DNA from: Escherichia coli
GTDB lineage: Bacteria; Pseudomonadota; Gammaproteobacteria; Enterobacterales; Enterobacteriaceae
Length of the DNA: 64,000 nt
Assembly: GCF_044324875.1 (NCBI RefSeq)
Contig: NZ_CP172185.1
Direction: 5' to 3' (one strand)
The translations under genes were made by a program, and so were the position numbers. The first letter of the stretch is position 1; each line of letters opens with the position of its first letter. Of this stretch, positions 1,409 through 43,396 are shown piece after piece. The notes under the pieces were generated by a model. That model was not told the DNA's origin, did not search any database, and saw nothing but the letters and a program-made list of their open reading frames with translations.

Positions 1409-1452
1409 GTGTCTTTATTGTTGATGTTGATTTCCCAACCGAGAAGAAATAT

Positions 1453-1472
1453 ACTGTATAAAATCACAGTTA
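1453..1472. promoter_or_regulatory. LexA (SOS) box upstream of yebG
   Basis: TACTGTATAAAATCACAGTT has the CTGT-N8-ACAG core of the LexA consensus; yebG is a known SOS gene. Confidence 0.7.
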
Positions 1473-2528: not shown

Positions 2529-3188
2529 ATGGCTAACTGGTTAAATCAACTGCAATCCTTGCTTGGGCAAAGCAGTTCTTCTGCCTCCTCGTCTGCGGAT
2601 CAGGGATTGGGCAAACTTTTAGTGCCAGGCGCATTAGGCGGACTGGCTGGGCTGCTGGTCGCAAATAAATCAGCACGTAAACTTCTTACGAAATATGGCA
2701 CCAACGCGTTACTGGTTGGCGGCGGAGCGGTCGCGGGTACGGTGCTGTGGAATAAATACAAAGATAAAATTCGCGCGGCGCATCAGGACGAACCGCAGTT
2801 TGGCGCGCAAAGTACGCCGCTGGATGAGCGTACGGAACGTTTGATCCTTGCGCTGGTCTTTGCCGCTAAAAGTGATGGTCATATTGATGCCAAAGAACGT
2901 GCGGCAATCGATCAGCAATTGCGTGAAGCCGGTGTGGAAGAACAGGGGCGTGTACTCATTGAGCAGGCAATCGAACAACCGCTGGATCCACAACGCCTGG
3001 CTACCGGGATTCGCAATGAAGAAGAGGCGCTGGAAATCTATTTCCTGAGCTGCGCGGCTATTGATATTGACCATTTTATGGAACGCAGTTACCTGAATGC
3101 ACTGGGTGACGCGCTGAAAATCCCCCAGGATGTTCGTGACGGCATTGAACGCGATCTCGAACAGCAAAAACGTACTTTGGCGGAATAA
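2529..3188 (+). CDS. yebE: Inner membrane protein YebE (DUF533)
   Basis: 219 aa ORF in the expected position after yebF. Confidence 0.85.
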
Positions 3189-12336: not shown

Positions 12337-13776
12337 TCAGGCGTTACCGGTAAAAAGTTTCCCGTCTCGCACCAGTTCACGCGGGTAGCTGTTTTTCAGT
12401 CGCGAACCAATTCGTTTGGCTAAACCAATCGGCTGATGCTGGAAAGTAACCAATACATCATCCGCTACTGGCGCGGCTTGCGGGTAAACATCGCGCCCGC
12501 GATACCACTCTTCCGCTTCCTGCGGTGTCAGTTCAAAAGCGTTCACATTGTCGGGGGAGGCAAGGGCAATAACCGCTTCATGCTGCCAGCGATAACCTTT
12601 GTTGTGCGTTTCGGCAAGTTTAATCCCCAGGCGAGAAAATCGGACTTTACCGATCAGGGCTTCAATGTCTACCGGAAACAACCACACTTCTTTGTCGCGC
12701 TGCCAGAGTCGCAGGTTTTCATCCCAGTTTAAGCCAACACCTGCAGCCGCCTGACGAATTTGTCCAGCTTCGCGATCTTTCACCGGGCTGAACGGGAAAT
12801 TGCCCACTTTGTATTTTGGAGCGGGTAAGGCGGGAATCGCCTGAGTTTTACGCAGACGAGCAACGAAGAAGCCTTCGCAGTCGTAAATTTGTGGGAAAAC
12901 ATGCAAAAAGCCTTCCTCGGTCAGCGCCTTGTTTGCACCAGGGAAGAGATCGCCAAGCGGTAAAAACTCTACTGCGTCGGGGTAAGTCTCTTTCAGCCAC
13001 CGGCAGACGGCTTCATTTTCTTCCTGGTTTAAGGTACAGGTCGAGTAAACCAGCGTACCGCCAGGGCGTAATGCATGAAAGGCGCTGTCGATCAGTTCCC
13101 GTTGGGTAGCTGCGATTTCCTGATTGCTTTCGGGTGACCAGTTTTTTAGCGCATCGGGATCTTTACGCACCACGCCTTCGCCGGAGCAGGGAGCGTCCAG
13201 CAAAATGGCATCGAACATTTCTGGCAATGCCGCACCAAACACGCGGCCATCAAAATGTGTGAGCGCAACATTACGGATACCACAGCGGCTGATATTGGCA
13301 TGTAACACTTTTACCCGACTGGCGGAAAACTCATTGGCAAGGATAGCCCCTTCGTTATTCATCCGCGCGGCAATTTGCGTCGTTTTGGAGCCTGGCGCAG
13401 CAGCGACATCCATCACCCGCTGTGGTGCATTACCGTCAGCAAACAAGGCGGCGACGGGCAACATTGAACTGGCTTCCTGAATATAAAACAGGCCACTTAA
13501 ATGCTCGGCGGTACTACCCAACGGCAATGCATCTTCATCGTCGCGTTCAATCCAGAAACCTTCTTCACACCACGGAATTGGCGTAAGCGTCCAGCCATAA
13601 GGAGCGGTTAATTGCAGGAAATCAGCAACGGAGATTTTCAGCGTATTAACGCGAATGCTGCGGCGCAACGGGCGCTGACAGGCGGCAAGAAAATCATCAA
13701 AAGAGAGCGTCGAAGGCATCGCTTCGCGCATTTGCGTCAGAAAGGCGTCCGGGAAATAAACGGTGTGTTGGGCCAC
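12337..13776 (-). CDS. rsmF: 16S rRNA m5C1407 methyltransferase
   Basis: 479 aa from a GTG start ([21 protein letters not shown]); SAM-dependent NOL1/NOP2/Sun-family sequence. Confidence 0.9.
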
Positions 13777-13855: not shown

Positions 13856-16489
13856 TTATTTGGGAAGCGCAGTACCCCATTCACGCCACTCTTTCGGTTC
13901 ACTTTCCTGCAACAGGAAGTGCTTGCCTTCCTGGGCTTTCGGTGCCAGTGGCGTACCTGGAGGCGTGGCGAAGGCGATGCCGCCACGGATAAACTGGTTA
14001 AAGGTGCCGGTTTTCACGACGCCGCCCGTCAGACCAAAGTCCAGACTGTAACCCGATGCCAACCAGAAGACGGAATTGTTACGCACCAGGTGTTGATAGC
14101 GTTTACTGATGCGCATCGCAATCATCACGCGATCTGACAATGTCCCCAGCGTCATTCCGGTAACCGTACCGACTTCCAGACCACGGAACAGCACAGGCGT
14201 ACCGATGCCTAACGAACCGGCTTCCGGCGCTTCAACAATAATGCTTAAGCCATCCAGGTAACGCGAATCAGTTATGGTGGCCTCTTGTAATTCAAAGTCG
14301 CGGCGAGGATTGCCCCGGCCTGGTTCGACGTTGATATACGGCTGGAGGATAGTATCAAGATGCTCAACGCCAGCTGCCGAAATTTGCGGTGTGACCACTG
14401 AGAAGCGTGTACCACCGCGTGCAAAGGTCTGGACATATTCCGGGTAAAGTACCGCCTTTGCCTGTACTTCATTGCGCGCGGTAATCAGATCCAGCGTCTG
14501 GATTTGCCCGATATCAATACCGAGATAGCGAATTGGCATCCCGACCGCCAGTTTTCCGGCATCGAAAGCGTGAAGCGTAATTTGCCCTCCAACCGCACGG
14601 GCCGCTGTTTCGGAAGCATACAGAATACGCTTGTCGCCTTTACGCTGACTGGCGCTGGCACCGCTGAGGTTATCGAAGCTAATAGCCCCCTTTAATGCTC
14701 TGGAGAGCGGAGATGCCTGTACGGTTAGGCCGCTGCCATTCAGCTGAACTTTCGCCCCACCTTCTGCCCAGAACACGCTGTTGCTGGTCAGAAGGTTGCG
14801 ATACTCCGGCTTAATATGCAGATCGATATCAAACGCGTTAGCTCGCGGACGCACAGTAATAACTTCACCAACTTCAAATTTACGGTACAGCACTACCGAT
14901 CCTGCCTGCACATCCGGCAGCGTCTCTGCACTCAAACTCACGGTTGTGGTGGGTAAATCGCTAAGGCTGTTCTCCAGCGCTTTTTCCAGATTGGCATACA
15001 GTGGATAGCTGGCTTTCATCTCGCCTTTATCGCCTGGCAGAATACGTATCCCGCCGTTAATCCATTCTGAGGCGCTGGCACCGAGAAACTCAACGCCATC
15101 CAGCCCCACCTTCACGTCGACACGGCTGTTGACGACAAATTTGCTATCGCCTTTTACCAGTTCGCGATGCTGAGGCTCGATGGCGACGGTAAAGGTGACG
15201 CCTTTGCTGGTGAGTTTACGATCAATAACCTGGCCTACCTGCACGCCGTGAAGAATGAGCGGCTGACCAGCATCAATGCCGTAACTTTCCGGCGCGGTCA
15301 GGGTCAGCGTCAGAACATCCGGCTCATGGAGCAGGGCTTTTTCACCTGGCACAACAATAAACTCTTTACGTGGCTCGCCATCGCCGGGCACCAACTCAAA
15401 GGTTTTTCCGGTCAGCAGGGCACTGAGATTGGCATCGCTAAGGGATAATTTCGGGTTGCGTAATTCGATGCGGGTATTTTCACGAAGCAGGGTGACGACG
15501 CTGGGATCAACGGTCATTTCCCCAGTGACTTTACCACCAGGATTTAAATCCAGTTTAGTCAGCTGTCCGACTTCCAGCCCCTGATACATTAACGGCGTCG
15601 AGTCGGCGGTTAATCCGGCCCCACTCGGCAGTTCCAGTTTTATTATTACGCCACGCTGGCTGTGGGCGAGATCTTCATACAGACCAAAGGTATCTTCCGC
15701 CTCGGCAGGTTTCGACTCTTCAGGTGAATCGAAGGCAATCGCACCGTTAACCAGTGCCGCCAGACTTTCCAGTTTCACCTTCGCGCCACTGATACTGACG
15801 TTGGCATCAACGCCAGAAACGTTCCAGAAACGGCTACCTTTTTTCACCAGGTCGGTAAAACGCCGCTCGATCAGGACATCAATCACCACGCCTTGCTTGT
15901 TGGGATTGATGGCATAGTCGTAGACTTTTCCGACCGGGATCTTGCGGAAATAGACCAATGAACCGCTGTTCAGCGAACCGAGATCGGGGGCTTGCAGGTG
16001 GATCATCAGATCGCCGTTATCCAGCCGATACTTCGGTTGGGTATCGAGTGCGACAAAGTGATCCTGCTCCTTACCTTTACCTGGCATCATGCCGATATAG
16101 TTACCACCGACGAGGGCGTCCAGTCCGGAGACACCTGCCAACGAGGCCTTTGGCGTCACCAGCCAGAACTGTGTCTCTTCGCGCAGCGCATCTTTCATAT
16201 CGGACTTGATGCTGACCTTGACTTCAATCTTACGAAGATCGTCGCTCAGGCTGATATCCTGCACAGTTCCGACTTCAACGCCCTGATAACGAACAGGGGT
16301 GCGGCCCGGGACAATGCCATCCGCCGACATAAAGTCGATGGTGACGGTATTACCCCGGTCCTGATAACTATCCCAAATCAGCCAACCGGCAATCATTAGC
16401 GCGATGAACGGCAGCAGCCAGAAAGGTGAGATACGGCGTTTATTTTTAATCTGCGCTTCAGTCGTCGAAGCGGGCGTTTCCTGACTCAT
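13856..16489 (-). CDS. letB: Lipophilic envelope-spanning tunnel protein LetB (multi-MCE domain)
   Basis: 877 aa from [39 protein letters not shown]; single N-terminal TM segment followed by repeated MCE domains. Confidence 0.9.
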
Positions 16490-27660: not shown

Positions 27661-28470
27661 ATGTCGTTTTCCTGTCCACTTTGCCATCAGCCTCTTTCGC
27701 GTGAAAAAAACAGCTATATCTGTCCCCAGCGACATCAGTTTGATATGGCGAAAGAAGGGTATGTCAATCTGCTGCCCGTTCAGCATAAACGGTCTCGTGA
27801 TCCGGGGGACAGCGCGGAAATGATGCAAGCACGCCGCGCATTCTTAGATGCCGGACATTATCAGCCGCTGCGTGATGCAATTGTCGCTCAACTGCGGGAA
27901 CGGCTTGATGAAAAGGCCACAGCGGTGCTGGATATTGGCTGTGGTGAAGGGTATTACACACACGCATTTGCCGATGCGCTGCCCGAAATCACCACGTTTG
28001 GCCTGGATGTCTCGAAGGTAGCGATAAAAGCGGCGGCGAAACGCTATCCGCAGGTCACTTTTTGTGTTGCTTCCAGCCACCGTTTGCCGTTTTCCGATAC
28101 CAGTATGGACGCCATAATACGTATTTACGCGCCGTGTAAAGCAGAAGAATTAGCGCGAGTAGTGAAGCCTGGCGGTTGGGTCATTACTGCCACGCCGGGA
28201 CCGCGACATTTGATGGAGCTGAAGGGGCTGATTTACAATGAAGTACATCTTCATGCACCACATGCAGAACAACTGGAAGGTTTTACATTACAGCAGAGTG
28301 ATGAGTTGTGTTATCCGATGCGTCTTCGCGGTGATGAAGCCGTCGCATTATTGCAGATGACGCCGTTTGCCTGGCGTGCGAAGCCAGAAGTCTGGCAAAC
28401 ACTGGCAGCAAAAGAAGTGTTCGACTGCCAGACGGACTTTAATATTCACCTCTGGCAGCGTTCTTATTAA
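27661..28470 (+). CDS. rlmA: 23S rRNA m1G745 methyltransferase
   Basis: 269 aa; N-terminal Cys4 zinc-binding motif (CPLCHQ...CPQRH) and SAM-binding DIGCGEGYY. Confidence 0.9.
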
Positions 28471-40588: not shown

Positions 40589-41009
40589 ATTCTTATCCTT
40601 AAATTTAACCATGTTATCGATAAGGCTATATATGACCTTAATTTGCATCTAATATCAAAGGGATTATAACGATATGGCACGAGTTAACCTGTTGACATTC
40701 AGGTGTTTTAAAGGTAGCAGCTCATGGTGTGTTATCCAGTAAGAGGGAGAAAATTAACGGTCAGTCCGCACGCTATAACCAGATTGTTCAGCTAAGAAAG
40801 AAAACCAGAGTTGCTAATCAAAGGGCGAACACAACGGCATGGTTATGTTTATTTATATAGCTAGTTTTATAGATGAAATTGAAATTATAAAAATAAATAA
40901 TGAATTAGCAGGAGCATCAACAGTAATAACTTAATCTCTGGTCGATTTATGTAAAACCGACCAGTATTATCGATAAATTATCGTCTGACTTATTTTGCTT
41001 CGATAAAGC

Positions 41010-41354
41010 TTACACCGCAGCCACAATCTTAATTTCAACTTTATACTTCGGGTTCATCAAACCCGCTTGTACCGTGCAGCGCACCGGCGCATGACCCGCG
41101 ACAACCCAGGCATCCCACGCTTTATTCATCGCCGCGAAGTCGTTTTTATCGGCCAGGAAAATGGTGGCATCCAGAATGCTCGATTTATTGCTGCCCTGTT
41201 TTTCCAGCACGGCGTCAATCTGCGCCAGCGTGTTGGCAGTTTGCTCGAAAGCATCGGCGTCGAGGTTTTCCGGTACACCAGTGTAGTAGAGCGTGTTGTT
41301 GTGGATCACCACATCAGACCAGCGGGCTTCAGCATCGATACGAACGATAGTCAT
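41010..41354 (-). CDS. yoaB: RidA/YjgF-family protein YoaB
   Basis: 114 aa from MTIVRIDAEARWSDVVIHNNTLYYTGV. Confidence 0.8.
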   Translation of the reverse strand: MTIVRIDAEARWSDVVIHNNTLYYTGVPENLDADAFEQTANTLAQIDAVLEKQGSNKSSILDATIFLADKNDFAAMNKAWDAWVVAGHAPVRCTVQAGLMNPKYKVEIKIVAAV

Positions 41355-41459
41355 CATTTTGTCCTCATTATACTTCCATTTTCGTGCTGCAAAGACTGCC
41401 ACAATGTGAGGTCGCCGTCATCACTTCAACTGGCGAAAGCGCCCTCATCCTGACATAAT

Positions 41460-41479
41460 CCCTGTTCAAATCAACAGGG
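41460..41479. promoter_or_regulatory. Candidate LexA box immediately upstream of yoaA
   Basis: CCCTGTTCAAATCAACAGGG contains CTGT-N8-ACAG; yoaA (DinG-like helicase) is an SOS gene. Confidence 0.5.
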
Positions 41480-41485
41480 GGTAGT

Positions 41486-43396
41486 GTGACGGACGATTTT
41501 GCACCAGACGGTCAGCTGGCGAAAGCGATACCAGGCTTTAAGCCGCGAGAACCACAGCGACAGATGGCGGTAGCCGTCACCCAGGCGATAGAAAAAGGCC
41601 AGCCGCTGGTGGTGGAAGCCGGAACCGGTACGGGCAAAACCTACGCTTACCTGGCCCCTGCGCTGCGGGCGAAAAAGAAAGTTATTATCTCGACCGGTTC
41701 AAAAGCGTTGCAGGATCAGCTCTACAGCCGCGATTTGCCAACAGTCTCAAAGGCATTGAAATATACGGGCAACGTGGCGCTGCTGAAAGGGCGCTCAAAC
41801 TACCTCTGCCTCGAGCGTCTCGAACAGCAGGCGCTGGCGGGGGGCGATCTGCCGGTACAAATCTTAAGCGATGTGATCCTGCTGCGCTCCTGGTCTAATC
41901 AAACAGTCGATGGTGATATCAGCACCTGCGTCAGCGTGGCGGAAGATTCACAGGCGTGGCCGCTGGTCACCAGCACCAACGACAACTGTCTTGGCAGCGA
42001 CTGCCCGATGTATAAAGATTGCTTTGTGGTCAAAGCACGCAAAAAAGCGATGGACGCCGATGTGGTGGTGGTAAACCATCATCTCTTTCTGGCGGATATG
42101 GTGGTGAAAGAGAGTGGATTTGGCGAACTGATCCCGGAAGCTGACGTGATGATCTTCGACGAAGCCCACCAACTGCCCGACATTGCCAGCCAGTATTTTG
42201 GTCAGTCACTCTCCAGTCGACAACTGCTCGACCTGGCAAAAGACATCACCATCGCCTATCGCACCGAATTAAAAGATACTCAGCAGTTACAAAAGTGCGC
42301 CGACCGCCTTGCCCAGAGCGCGCAGGATTTTCGTCTGCAACTCGGTGAGCCTGGTTATCGTGGCAACCTGCGCGAACTGTTAGCTAATCCGCAAATTCAA
42401 CGGGCGTTTTTACTGCTCGATGACACCCTGGAACTTTGTTATGACGTGGCGAAACTGTCGCTGGGGCGTTCCGCCTTGCTGGATGCGGCATTTGAGCGCG
42501 CCACGTTGTATCGTACGCGGCTGAAACGGCTAAAAGAGATCAATCAGCCGGGCTACAGCTACTGGTACGAATGCACTTCGCGCCATTTTACTCTGGCACT
42601 CACGCCGCTCAGCGTGGCGGATAAATTCAAAGAGTTAATGGCGCAAAAGCCAGGTAGCTGGATTTTTACCTCGGCAACGCTGTCGGTGAATGACGATCTG
42701 CATCATTTCACCTCGCGGCTTGGCATTGAACAGGCAGAGTCGTTGCTGTTACCCAGCCCGTTTGATTACAGCCGCCAGGCGTTACTCTGTGTGCCGCGCA
42801 ACCTGCCGCAAACCAATCAACCGGGCTCCGCAAGGCAACTGGCGGCAATGTTGCGACCGATCATCGAGGCTAACAACGGTCGTTGTTTTATGCTTTGTAC
42901 CTCGCACGCCATGATGCGCGATCTGGCCGAGCAGTTCCGCGCTACCATGACGCTTCCCGTTTTGTTGCAGGGAGAAACCAGCAAAGGGCAACTGTTGCAG
43001 CAATTTGTCAGCGCCGGTAACGCGCTTCTTGTGGCAACCAGTAGTTTCTGGGAGGGGGTGGACGTGCGTGGCGATACATTGTCATTGGTGATTATCGACA
43101 AGTTGCCGTTTACCTCACCGGATGATCCACTATTAAAAGCGCGCATGGAAGATTGCCGTTTGCGTGGTGGTGACCCGTTCGATGAAGTACAGCTGCCGGA
43201 TGCGGTGATTACTCTCAAGCAGGGAGTAGGGCGACTGATTCGCGACGCCGACGATCGCGGCGTGCTGGTGATTTGCGATAATCGGCTGGTGATGCGCCCT
43301 TACGGCGCGACGTTTCTCGCCAGTCTGCCGCCAGCGCCGCGCACCCGTGACATTGCCCGTGCGGTTCGTTTCCTTGCGATACCATCCTCCAGGTAA
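41486..43396 (+). CDS. yoaA: DinG-family ATP-dependent helicase YoaA
   Basis: 636 aa from a GTG start; Walker A AGTGTGKT, DEAH box (DEAH) and Fe-S Cys cluster. Confidence 0.9.
   Translation: MTDDFAPDGQLAKAIPGFKPREPQRQMAVAVTQAIEKGQPLVVEAGTGTGKTYAYLAPALRAKKKVIISTGSKALQDQLYSRDLPTVSKALKYTGNVALLKGRSNYLCLERLEQQALAGGDLPVQILSDVILLRSWSNQTVDGDISTCVSVAEDSQAWPLVTSTNDNCLGSDCPMYKDCFVVKARKKAMDADVVVVNHHLFLADMVVKESGFGELIPEADVMIFDEAHQLPDIASQYFGQSLSSRQLLDLAKDITIAYRTELKDTQQLQKCADRLAQSAQDFRLQLGEPGYRGNLRELLANPQIQRAFLLLDDTLELCYDVAKLSLGRSALLDAAFERATLYRTRLKRLKEINQPGYSYWYECTSRHFTLALTPLSVADKFKELMAQKPGSWIFTSATLSVNDDLHHFTSRLGIEQAESLLLPSPFDYSRQALLCVPRNLPQTNQPGSARQLAAMLRPIIEANNGRCFMLCTSHAMMRDLAEQFRATMTLPVLLQGETSKGQLLQQFVSAGNALLVATSSFWEGVDVRGDTLSLVIIDKLPFTSPDDPLLKARMEDCRLRGGDPFDEVQLPDAVITLKQGVGRLIRDADDRGVLVICDNRLVMRPYGATFLASLPPAPRTRDIARAVRFLAIPSSR

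Follow-up and report, generated by a model that had tools for sequence, protein, structure and literature searches.

The SOS operator of yoaA in Escherichia coli: a weak LexA dyad between a putative extended -10 promoter and a strong Shine-Dalgarno sequence

Described SOS operators and the yoaA box

A LexA site in front of yoaA was predicted by Courcelle et al. (2001) with an HI of about 13, the value quoted in Table 1 of PMC11228462, where it is the weakest among the classical SOS genes, tied with polB, and where yoaA is listed with a 4.0-fold induction by AZT and a 1.6-fold dependence on lexA3. The site was taken to experiment by Sutera et al. (2021; J Bacteriol 203:e00228-21, PMC8378479): a luxCDABE fusion of the 132-bp yoaB-yoaA intergenic region (PyoaA::lux) was inducible by AZT, the lexA3 allele removed the early induction, and the change of CTG(N)10CAG, where N10 is TTCAAATCAA, to CCC..GGG made the fusion constitutively high. 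The fragment, which stops just 5′ of the GTG and so comprises upstream DNA and no yoaA coding sequence, suffices for promoter activity (PMC8378479). Dependence on LexA, induction by damage and derepression upon mutation of the box are therefore established by published experiment. Because two bases flanking the dyad on either side were changed as well, one pair beside the -10 and the other inside the Shine-Dalgarno (SD) sequence, part of the constitutive effect could reflect a changed promoter strength. A second, late and growth-phase-dependent induction persisted in lexA3 at about 30% of the wild type at 180 min, which means that simple LexA cleavage does not explain the late induction of yoaA, and for this phase the authors suggested that LexA repression is relieved in some unknown manner (PMC8378479).

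The box described in these works is the identical element to the one considered here, CTG-TTCAAATCAA-CAG, 24 nt upstream of the ORF; in their available text, the descriptions by Courcelle et al. and Sutera et al. place it relative to the ORF, and what is added here is its relation to the -10, to the SD sequence and to the corresponding regions of other genera. In other words, the yoaA palindrome is an already published and experimentally tested SOS operator, real, ordinary and known.

Within the window (the whole stretch of 64,000 nucleotides that was analysed) there is a second operator with which it can be compared, that of yebG (1452–1471, TACTGTATAAAATCACAGTT), which has the same CTGT-N8-ACAG core, overlaps a -10-like TATACT and has its 3′ end about 20 nt ahead of the start codon. 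Since yebG is similarly compact, the packing of operator, ribosome-binding site (RBS) and start codon is not special to yoaA; the yebG operator is, however, far better than that of yoaA (HI of 4.2 with our own matrix, 6.3 as published), and its induction is much stronger. Weak or asymmetric boxes like that of yoaA are found at polB (dinA) and dinG, with published HI values of 13 and 8.6 (PMC11228462), and the replication-repair enzymes under their control are likewise modestly induced; dinG, moreover, is a paralogue of yoaA and is likewise regulated by LexA. The polB and dinG boxes bound LexA in vitro (Lewis and Mount, 1992, as cited in PMC8378479), whereas our search of the literature found no binding counterpart for the yoaA box, be it site-level LexA ChIP, EMSA or footprint data.

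At a quantitative level, the published values for the induction of chromosomal yoaA range from 1.6- to 4-fold, and in ciprofloxacin its mRNA reached a maximum log2 fold change of 0.68, versus 4.06 for yebG. The earlier note on this DNA had taken the close packing of the elements as a sign of tight basal repression, and this is contradicted by the HI of 13, by the 1.6- to 4.0-fold effects and by the response to ciprofloxacin: the operator is weak, and because it is weak (HI of about 13), it represses yoaA only partially, with a modest induction ratio.

Anatomy of the yoaA control region

The box had been described as a LexA-like CTGT-N8-ACAG ending 8 bp before the GTG of yoaA, and this is exact to the base (Table 1). 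Both half-sites of CTGTTCAAATCAACAG are perfect (CTGT at 41462–41465, ACAG at 41474–41477), the gap to the GTG consists of the eight bases 41478–41485, and positions 41460–41489 read ccCTGTtcaaatcaACAGggggtagtGTGa. The consensus of the SOS box is TACTG(TA)5CAGTA, and the exact 16-bp spacing of the CTG-N10-CAG dyad, which serves as a criterion for such boxes, is found in CTGTTCAAATCAACAG. The operator, the RBS and the start codon all fall within about 35 bp and are packed as had been claimed.

Table 1. Features of the yoaA control region in the window; entries marked as putative or predicted are read from conservation or geometry.
Feature	Position	Strand	Basis
yoaB (RidA family), divergent neighbour	41010..41354	-	RefSeq annotation; mapped TSS 41385 (-)
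Putative -35-like TGGCGA, weak (3/6 matches), 17 bp upstream of the -10	41431..41436	+	conservation
Putative extended -10 TGaCATAAT of yoaA	41451..41459	+	conservation across Enterobacterales
In-frame TAA bounding the yoaA frame upstream	41455..41457	+	translation
20-bp yoaA box CCCTGTTCAAATCAACAGGG	41460..41479		
LexA operator core CTGT-N8-ACAG of yoaA	41462..41477	.	sequence, HI, published mutagenesis, conservation
Predicted proximal yoaA TSS, 5–9 nt past the -10	41464..41468	+	geometry from the -10
Shine-Dalgarno AGGGGGU	41476..41482	+	duplex energy, conservation
yoaA CDS, GTG start, 636 aa, DinG/XPD-family helicase	41486..43396	+	ORF, RefSeq annotation

The start codon of yoaA is the GTG, as had been proposed. 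It is the start given by RefSeq, where the product is an ATP-dependent DNA helicase, it is bounded upstream by the in-frame TAA, by which any start 5′ of the GTG was rejected, and all 18 Enterobacterales sequences compared, 13 of them from Enterobacteriaceae, have a GTG in the corresponding place. A start further downstream, the case in which the proposed packing would be lost, is not supported: the candidate M27 (ATG at 41564) was rejected, as it has no SD sequence (-3.0 kcal/mol) and residues 5–26 are conserved in the orthologues. The starts of distant orthologues, where they can be assigned, lie 0–7 codons upstream of the GTG position and none at the equivalent of M27; those of Vibrio, Haemophilus and others begin with an ATG 1–7 codons upstream of the aligned GTG position.

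The SD sequence ends 3 nt before the GTG, and its duplex with the 3′ end of the 16S rRNA (-10.8 kcal/mol, predicted) ranks in the top 0.3% among random 20-mers drawn from the window; CAGGGGG is kept in 12 of the 13 Enterobacteriaceae. Thus, of the weak start codon that had been claimed, the GTG itself is confirmed, but poor translation is not implied, because a weak GTG paired with a strong SD sequence need not be translated especially poorly. Nor does the box lie where the RBS should be, as the earlier note had it: it abuts the RBS, with which it shares just 2 bp in its 16-bp form and 4 in its 20-bp form. LexA binds DNA and not mRNA, and, given that the box starts 2 bp after the extended -10, it is the overlap with the promoter rather than with the RBS that matters mechanistically.

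With this geometry, the predicted transcription start (TSS), equivalent to about 1893253–1893257 on the minus strand of K-12 (NC_000913.3), would fall inside the box and the leader would be some 18–22 nt long; folded from the predicted start, this leader is predicted to be unstructured, less structured than its shuffled versions (z = +1.97). A scan of 41000–41700 for two-hexamer sigma-70 promoters and for terminators found nothing, and the absence of a promoter that could be read from this was rejected, since the -35 is poor and extended -10 promoters escape a requirement for two good hexamers. No proximal yoaA TSS was seen in Cappable-seq, Rend-seq, ROSE, Romero 2014 or Kim 2012 (E. coli and Klebsiella) data. 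The sole TSS that Kim et al. (2012) assigned to yoaA lies 509 nt upstream, at 40977 of the window, with 12 reads, and reads towards yoaA, antisense to yoaB; the 51-mer of the yoaB TSS in the supplement to the same work (448 reads) maps to 41385–41435 on the minus strand.

The window belongs to the E. coli chromosome. The kilobase of the window around yoaA is matched in 5424 of 5426 complete E. coli genomes, and the 39-mer 41450–41488, which contains the -10, the box, the SD sequence and the GTG, is found with at least 99% identity in 5269 of 5426, a threshold that over 39 nt admits no mismatch, nearly all of the matches being full-length. Between K-12 and the window, the yoaB-yoaA intergenic region differs by one base (41421), outside all the elements; the box, the -10, the SD sequence and the start are those of the K-12 sequence used by Sutera et al. 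(2021), and because of this identity the K-12 experiments apply directly to the window.

How far the box could be recognized from its letters was considered with an HI matrix built from 26 E. coli LexA boxes of the literature, with yoaA left out; this matrix reproduces the published ranking. The 20-mer CCCTGTTCAAATCAACAGGG has an HI of 12.8, near the published 13, which is worse than that of all 26 training boxes, while the yebG box has 4.2. Functional LexA boxes commonly have an HI below about 15, so that yoaA is inside their range, marginally. At or below 12.82 there are seven sites in the window, against 1.9 expected from first-order Markov simulations of 64 kb, and five of the seven have no known SOS role in spite of a score equal to or better than that of yoaA; in a single 132-bp region, the expected number of equally good sites is about 0.004. 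Two copies of the pattern CTGT-N8-ACAG are present in the 64 kb, where 0.63 would be expected, and as 12 of 100 shuffles had two or more, the count is not significant; the second copy (1454–1469) is the known yebG box and serves as an internal positive control. Sequence statistics alone are, then, insufficient to establish the yoaA LexA site, and where it is established, this is through conservation and published mutagenesis. The matrix scan that had been suggested as a check gives only a marginal score, and taking a low score as grounds for refutation would wrongly discard a site that mutagenesis shows to be functional. The lesson for method is that a LexA matrix used by itself would have rejected the functional yoaA site and accepted five sites of these 64 kb with no known SOS role.

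Conservation across species

For the comparison, 120 loci of YoaA orthologues, one genome per species, were found with a degenerate Walker-A pattern, and those of Klebsiella, Salmonella, Cronobacter, Siccibacter and Franconibacter were added; the upstream regions were lined up on the start codon, and six of them were formally aligned. The Enterobacteriaceae are represented by 13 species (E. coli, E. albertii, Salmonella, two Citrobacter, Klebsiella, E. cloacae, three other “Enterobacter” isolates, Cronobacter, Siccibacter and Franconibacter). Amid sequence that has fully diverged, four blocks are conserved: (i) the -35-like element, with CTGGC invariant and the rest nearly so in the six-species alignment, and with one or two base changes or a different spacing in E. 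cloacae, BIGb0383 and Ag1; (ii) the extended -10, with TGnCATAAT invariant in all 13; (iii) the CTG and CAG triplets of the box; and (iv) CAGGGGG with the GTG. The spacer between -35 and -10 is fully variable.

The dyad CTG-N10-CAG stands upstream of yoaA in 13 of 13 species, in every case as TGACATAAT-N2-CTG-N10-CAG, and in 12 of them 24 nt 5′ of the GTG, the other being E. cloacae, where the distance is 28 nt and a separate SD sequence, GAGAG, follows. Most of the 10-nt spacer varies between species, and positions 4 and 13 of the dyad switch between T/A and G/C, giving CTGT..ACAG or CTGG..CCAG, with mixed half-sites in Klebsiella and Siccibacter; all these forms, the mixed ones included, occur in genuine LexA boxes. 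Invariant triplets around a variable spacer are the footprint of a dyad bound by protein and not that of an RNA stem. The HI lies between 10.5 and 14.8 in all 13 species, so that the box has been retained and is never strong.

Outside this family, no comparable box was found at yoaA in two Yersinia, two Photorhabdus and one Orbaceae genome. Yersinia and Photorhabdus nevertheless keep the -10 as TGGCATAAT, the Orbaceae genome has only GGCATAAT, without the TG, and all five keep the GTG. In Vibrio, Haemophilus and most of some 100 other gamma- and betaproteobacterial loci there was likewise no comparable box: the best HI was usually above 15, and otherwise an intact CTG-N10-CAG was absent or its position unrelated. 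One strong box was seen elsewhere, at the locus L017 (HI of 6.5, 160 nt upstream), and probably belongs to a neighbouring gene. A protein search gave only Enterobacteriaceae among the matches listed (at least 120), with Erwiniaceae, Pectobacteriaceae, Hafniaceae and Serratia outside the sample. In the genomes compared, the yoaA box thus appears to be confined to Enterobacteriaceae and to be uniformly weak there.

Mode of repression, rival explanations and origin

The elements so far described suggest that the SOS operator of yoaA is a weak LexA dyad that spans the predicted TSS and blocks the proximal promoter, a reading to which we give a probability of about 0.93. Its anatomy, its score, the strength of the SD sequence and the conservation in Enterobacteriaceae are direct observations, while where transcription starts, and that LexA represses by occluding the promoter, are deduced from geometry. 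According to this model, a LexA dimer would sit on the CTGT-N8-ACAG dyad and would occlude the -10 and the +1, keeping RNA polymerase from the proximal promoter; upon damage to the DNA, RecA would stimulate the self-cleavage of LexA and the promoter would be freed, and the short, unstructured leader then made, with its strong SD sequence and the GTG, would allow synthesis of the YoaA helicase.

An alternative explanation is that the palindrome acts in the mRNA, as a hairpin that hides the SD sequence and attenuates translation, so that it would not be a DNA operator, or not only that. The RNA of 41458–41490 can indeed form an 8-bp hairpin of -10.2 kcal/mol in which four of the five SD guanines are paired, and transcripts from the weak TSS at 40977, if they reach yoaA, would carry the whole palindrome. 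However, as the predicted main TSS is inside the left arm, the proximal transcript would be devoid of the hairpin; 13 of 200 shuffled sequences fold equally well, which makes it not significant; in the species with CTGG..CCAG only about 4 bp pair, what is conserved being the LexA dyad and not the stem; and the reporter that ends 5′ of the GTG still gives the full LexA effect (PMC8378479), all of which renders this explanation very improbable. Still harder to sustain is the view that the palindrome arose by chance, scores poorly, has no LexA function and that the induction of yoaA by damage is indirect. It can draw on the HI of about 13, on the five sites of the window outside the SOS system that are as good or better, on a count of the pattern that is not significant and on a dependence on lexA3 of just 1.6-fold, but not on the abolition of repression by mutation of the box or on the block of early induction by lexA3 (PMC8378479), nor on a CTG and CAG that are invariant in 13 of 13 species while most spacer positions have diverged, with about 0.004 such sites expected per 132 bp; by mutagenesis and conservation it is in practice excluded.

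The late phase of induction, which survives lexA3 (PMC8378479), raises the question of whether a second regulator shares the site, or mainly uses it, and brings about an induction independent of LexA cleavage. Most of the 13 species retain CAAAT/ATTTG as the core of the spacer, unlike the (TA)n of the consensus, and this could be taken in its favor. We know of no candidate for such a factor at the yoaA box; the analysis turned up no other motif, conservation coincides exactly with the triplets that LexA contacts, and the late phase could equally reflect a falling occupancy of LexA at a weak operator, so that a second regulator seems unlikely, if less so than the two preceding alternatives.

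If a LexA dyad that occludes the promoter is accepted as the operator, there is still the matter of why the elements are so tightly packed, and this is better explained by history, the dyad having been placed in the only space available. In Yersinia and Photorhabdus, the TGnCATAAT -10 is followed, after about 26–31 nt, by the GTG, with no box between them, and because this compact promoter-leader is present there without the box it would predate the operator. A tentative account, to which we assign rather less than even odds, is that LexA control is specific to one lineage and was acquired by the ancestor of the Enterobacteriaceae, in which a dyad filled the only free space of the older promoter-leader and has been of low affinity in every genus since. 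According to this same account, the operator would have stayed weak because it is confined to the gap between the -10 and an SD sequence that supplies its 3′ flank, with GG instead of the TA of the consensus.

YoaA, together with the clamp-loader subunit chi, helps to free replication gaps of blocked 3′ ends, and it is toxic when overproduced. Given this role and this toxicity, the control of yoaA is biologically relevant, although the rediscovery of its operator adds little in itself. What is incremental here is, on the one hand, the placement of the operator, with a conserved extended -10 on one side and a strong SD sequence on the other, which amounts to a testable model of the promoter, and, on the other, the apparent restriction of the box to the Enterobacteriaceae, together with its uniform weakness there. 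If the box was indeed gained in the ancestor of this family and has been of low affinity ever since, this would point to selection in favor of an SOS response that is leaky and sets in at a low threshold, for a helicase whose excess is toxic.

LexA-type sites in the window

Apart from the weak operator of yoaA, the motif CTGT-N8-ACAG is found in the 64-kb window only at the SOS box of yebG, which was used as the positive control for the LexA matrix. This box partly coincides with a hexamer resembling a -10 element (TATACT), and its end lies about 20 nt upstream of the yebG start codon (ATG at 1490). Five more sites in the window score as listed in the table (HI, heterology index; lower is better), and all five are without an intact CTG-N10-CAG; at this score or better, 7 sites are observed vs. 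1.9 expected. The site on the minus strand at 40722 lies within 50 bp upstream of the yoaC transcription start site (TSS) mapped by Kim et al. (2012).

LexA-type sites and promoter features, in window coordinates
Feature	Position	Strand	Sequence or score
yebG SOS box	1452-1471		TACTGTATAAAATCACAGTT; HI 4.2
LexA-matrix site	2535-2554		HI 12.8 or better
LexA-matrix site	13022-13041		HI 12.8 or better
LexA-matrix site	15536-15555		ACCAGGATTTAAATCCAGTT; HI 12.8 or better; perfect 12-bp palindrome GGATTTAAATCC inside
LexA-matrix site	28271-28290		HI 12.8 or better
LexA-matrix site	40722-40741	-	TACTGGATAACACACCATGA; HI 12.8 or better
Distal yoaA TSS region	40940-40977	+	Good TATTAT -10 (Kim et al., 2012)
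yoaB TSS	41385	-	Mapped, 448 reads
Likely yoaB -35	complement of 41423-41428	-	TTGAAG
yoaA -35-like hexamer	41431-41436	+	TGGCGA

Related loci and the yebG-to-yoaA interval

A strong LexA-type box (TACTGTACAAAAAATCAGTT, HI 6.5) is present about 160 nt upstream of the yoaA orthologue of locus L017, whose protein is of the proteobacterial type (46% identity to that of E. coli) and whose contig is labeled as a Bacteroidota MAG (Alistipes senegalensis); binning contamination is the probable explanation for this contig, and the box is more likely that of a neighboring gene. Some of the YoaA entries in the database (P0030, P0031, and P0006) fall short of 636 aa: two from Salmonella, of 609 and 604 aa, and one more of 599 aa. 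Given that in the Salmonella locus yoaA starts at the same GTG, 130 bp after yoaB, the shortening is not N-terminal; it may reflect a truncation or a deletion.

The distance from yebG to yoaA is 39,996 bp in the window vs. 39,276 bp in NZ_CP076709.1, the closest annotated genome, that is, 720 bp shorter in the latter, despite its own insertion of ISEc46 (IS200/IS605 tnpA-tnpB), located between ptrB and yebE. Hence, an indel somewhere in this interval distinguishes the window from that genome, and the comparison points to the region at about 4-10 kb. The same interval carries further replication and repair genes, holE (Pol III theta) and exoX.

Promoters of yoaB and yoaA

Kim et al. (2012) reported a weak TSS for yoaA (12 reads) 509 nt upstream, just past the 3′ end of yoaB, from which transcription runs antisense through yoaB and toward yoaA. 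Any such transcripts reaching yoaA would contain the whole palindrome, and therefore the hairpin that would hide the Shine-Dalgarno sequence.

The yoaB gene is not induced in the SOS response. Its mapped TSS and the predicted TSS of yoaA are about 80 bp apart, and the likely yoaB -35 and the yoaA -35-like hexamer stand back to back (41423-41436), an arrangement because of which the two promoters may compete or be coupled.
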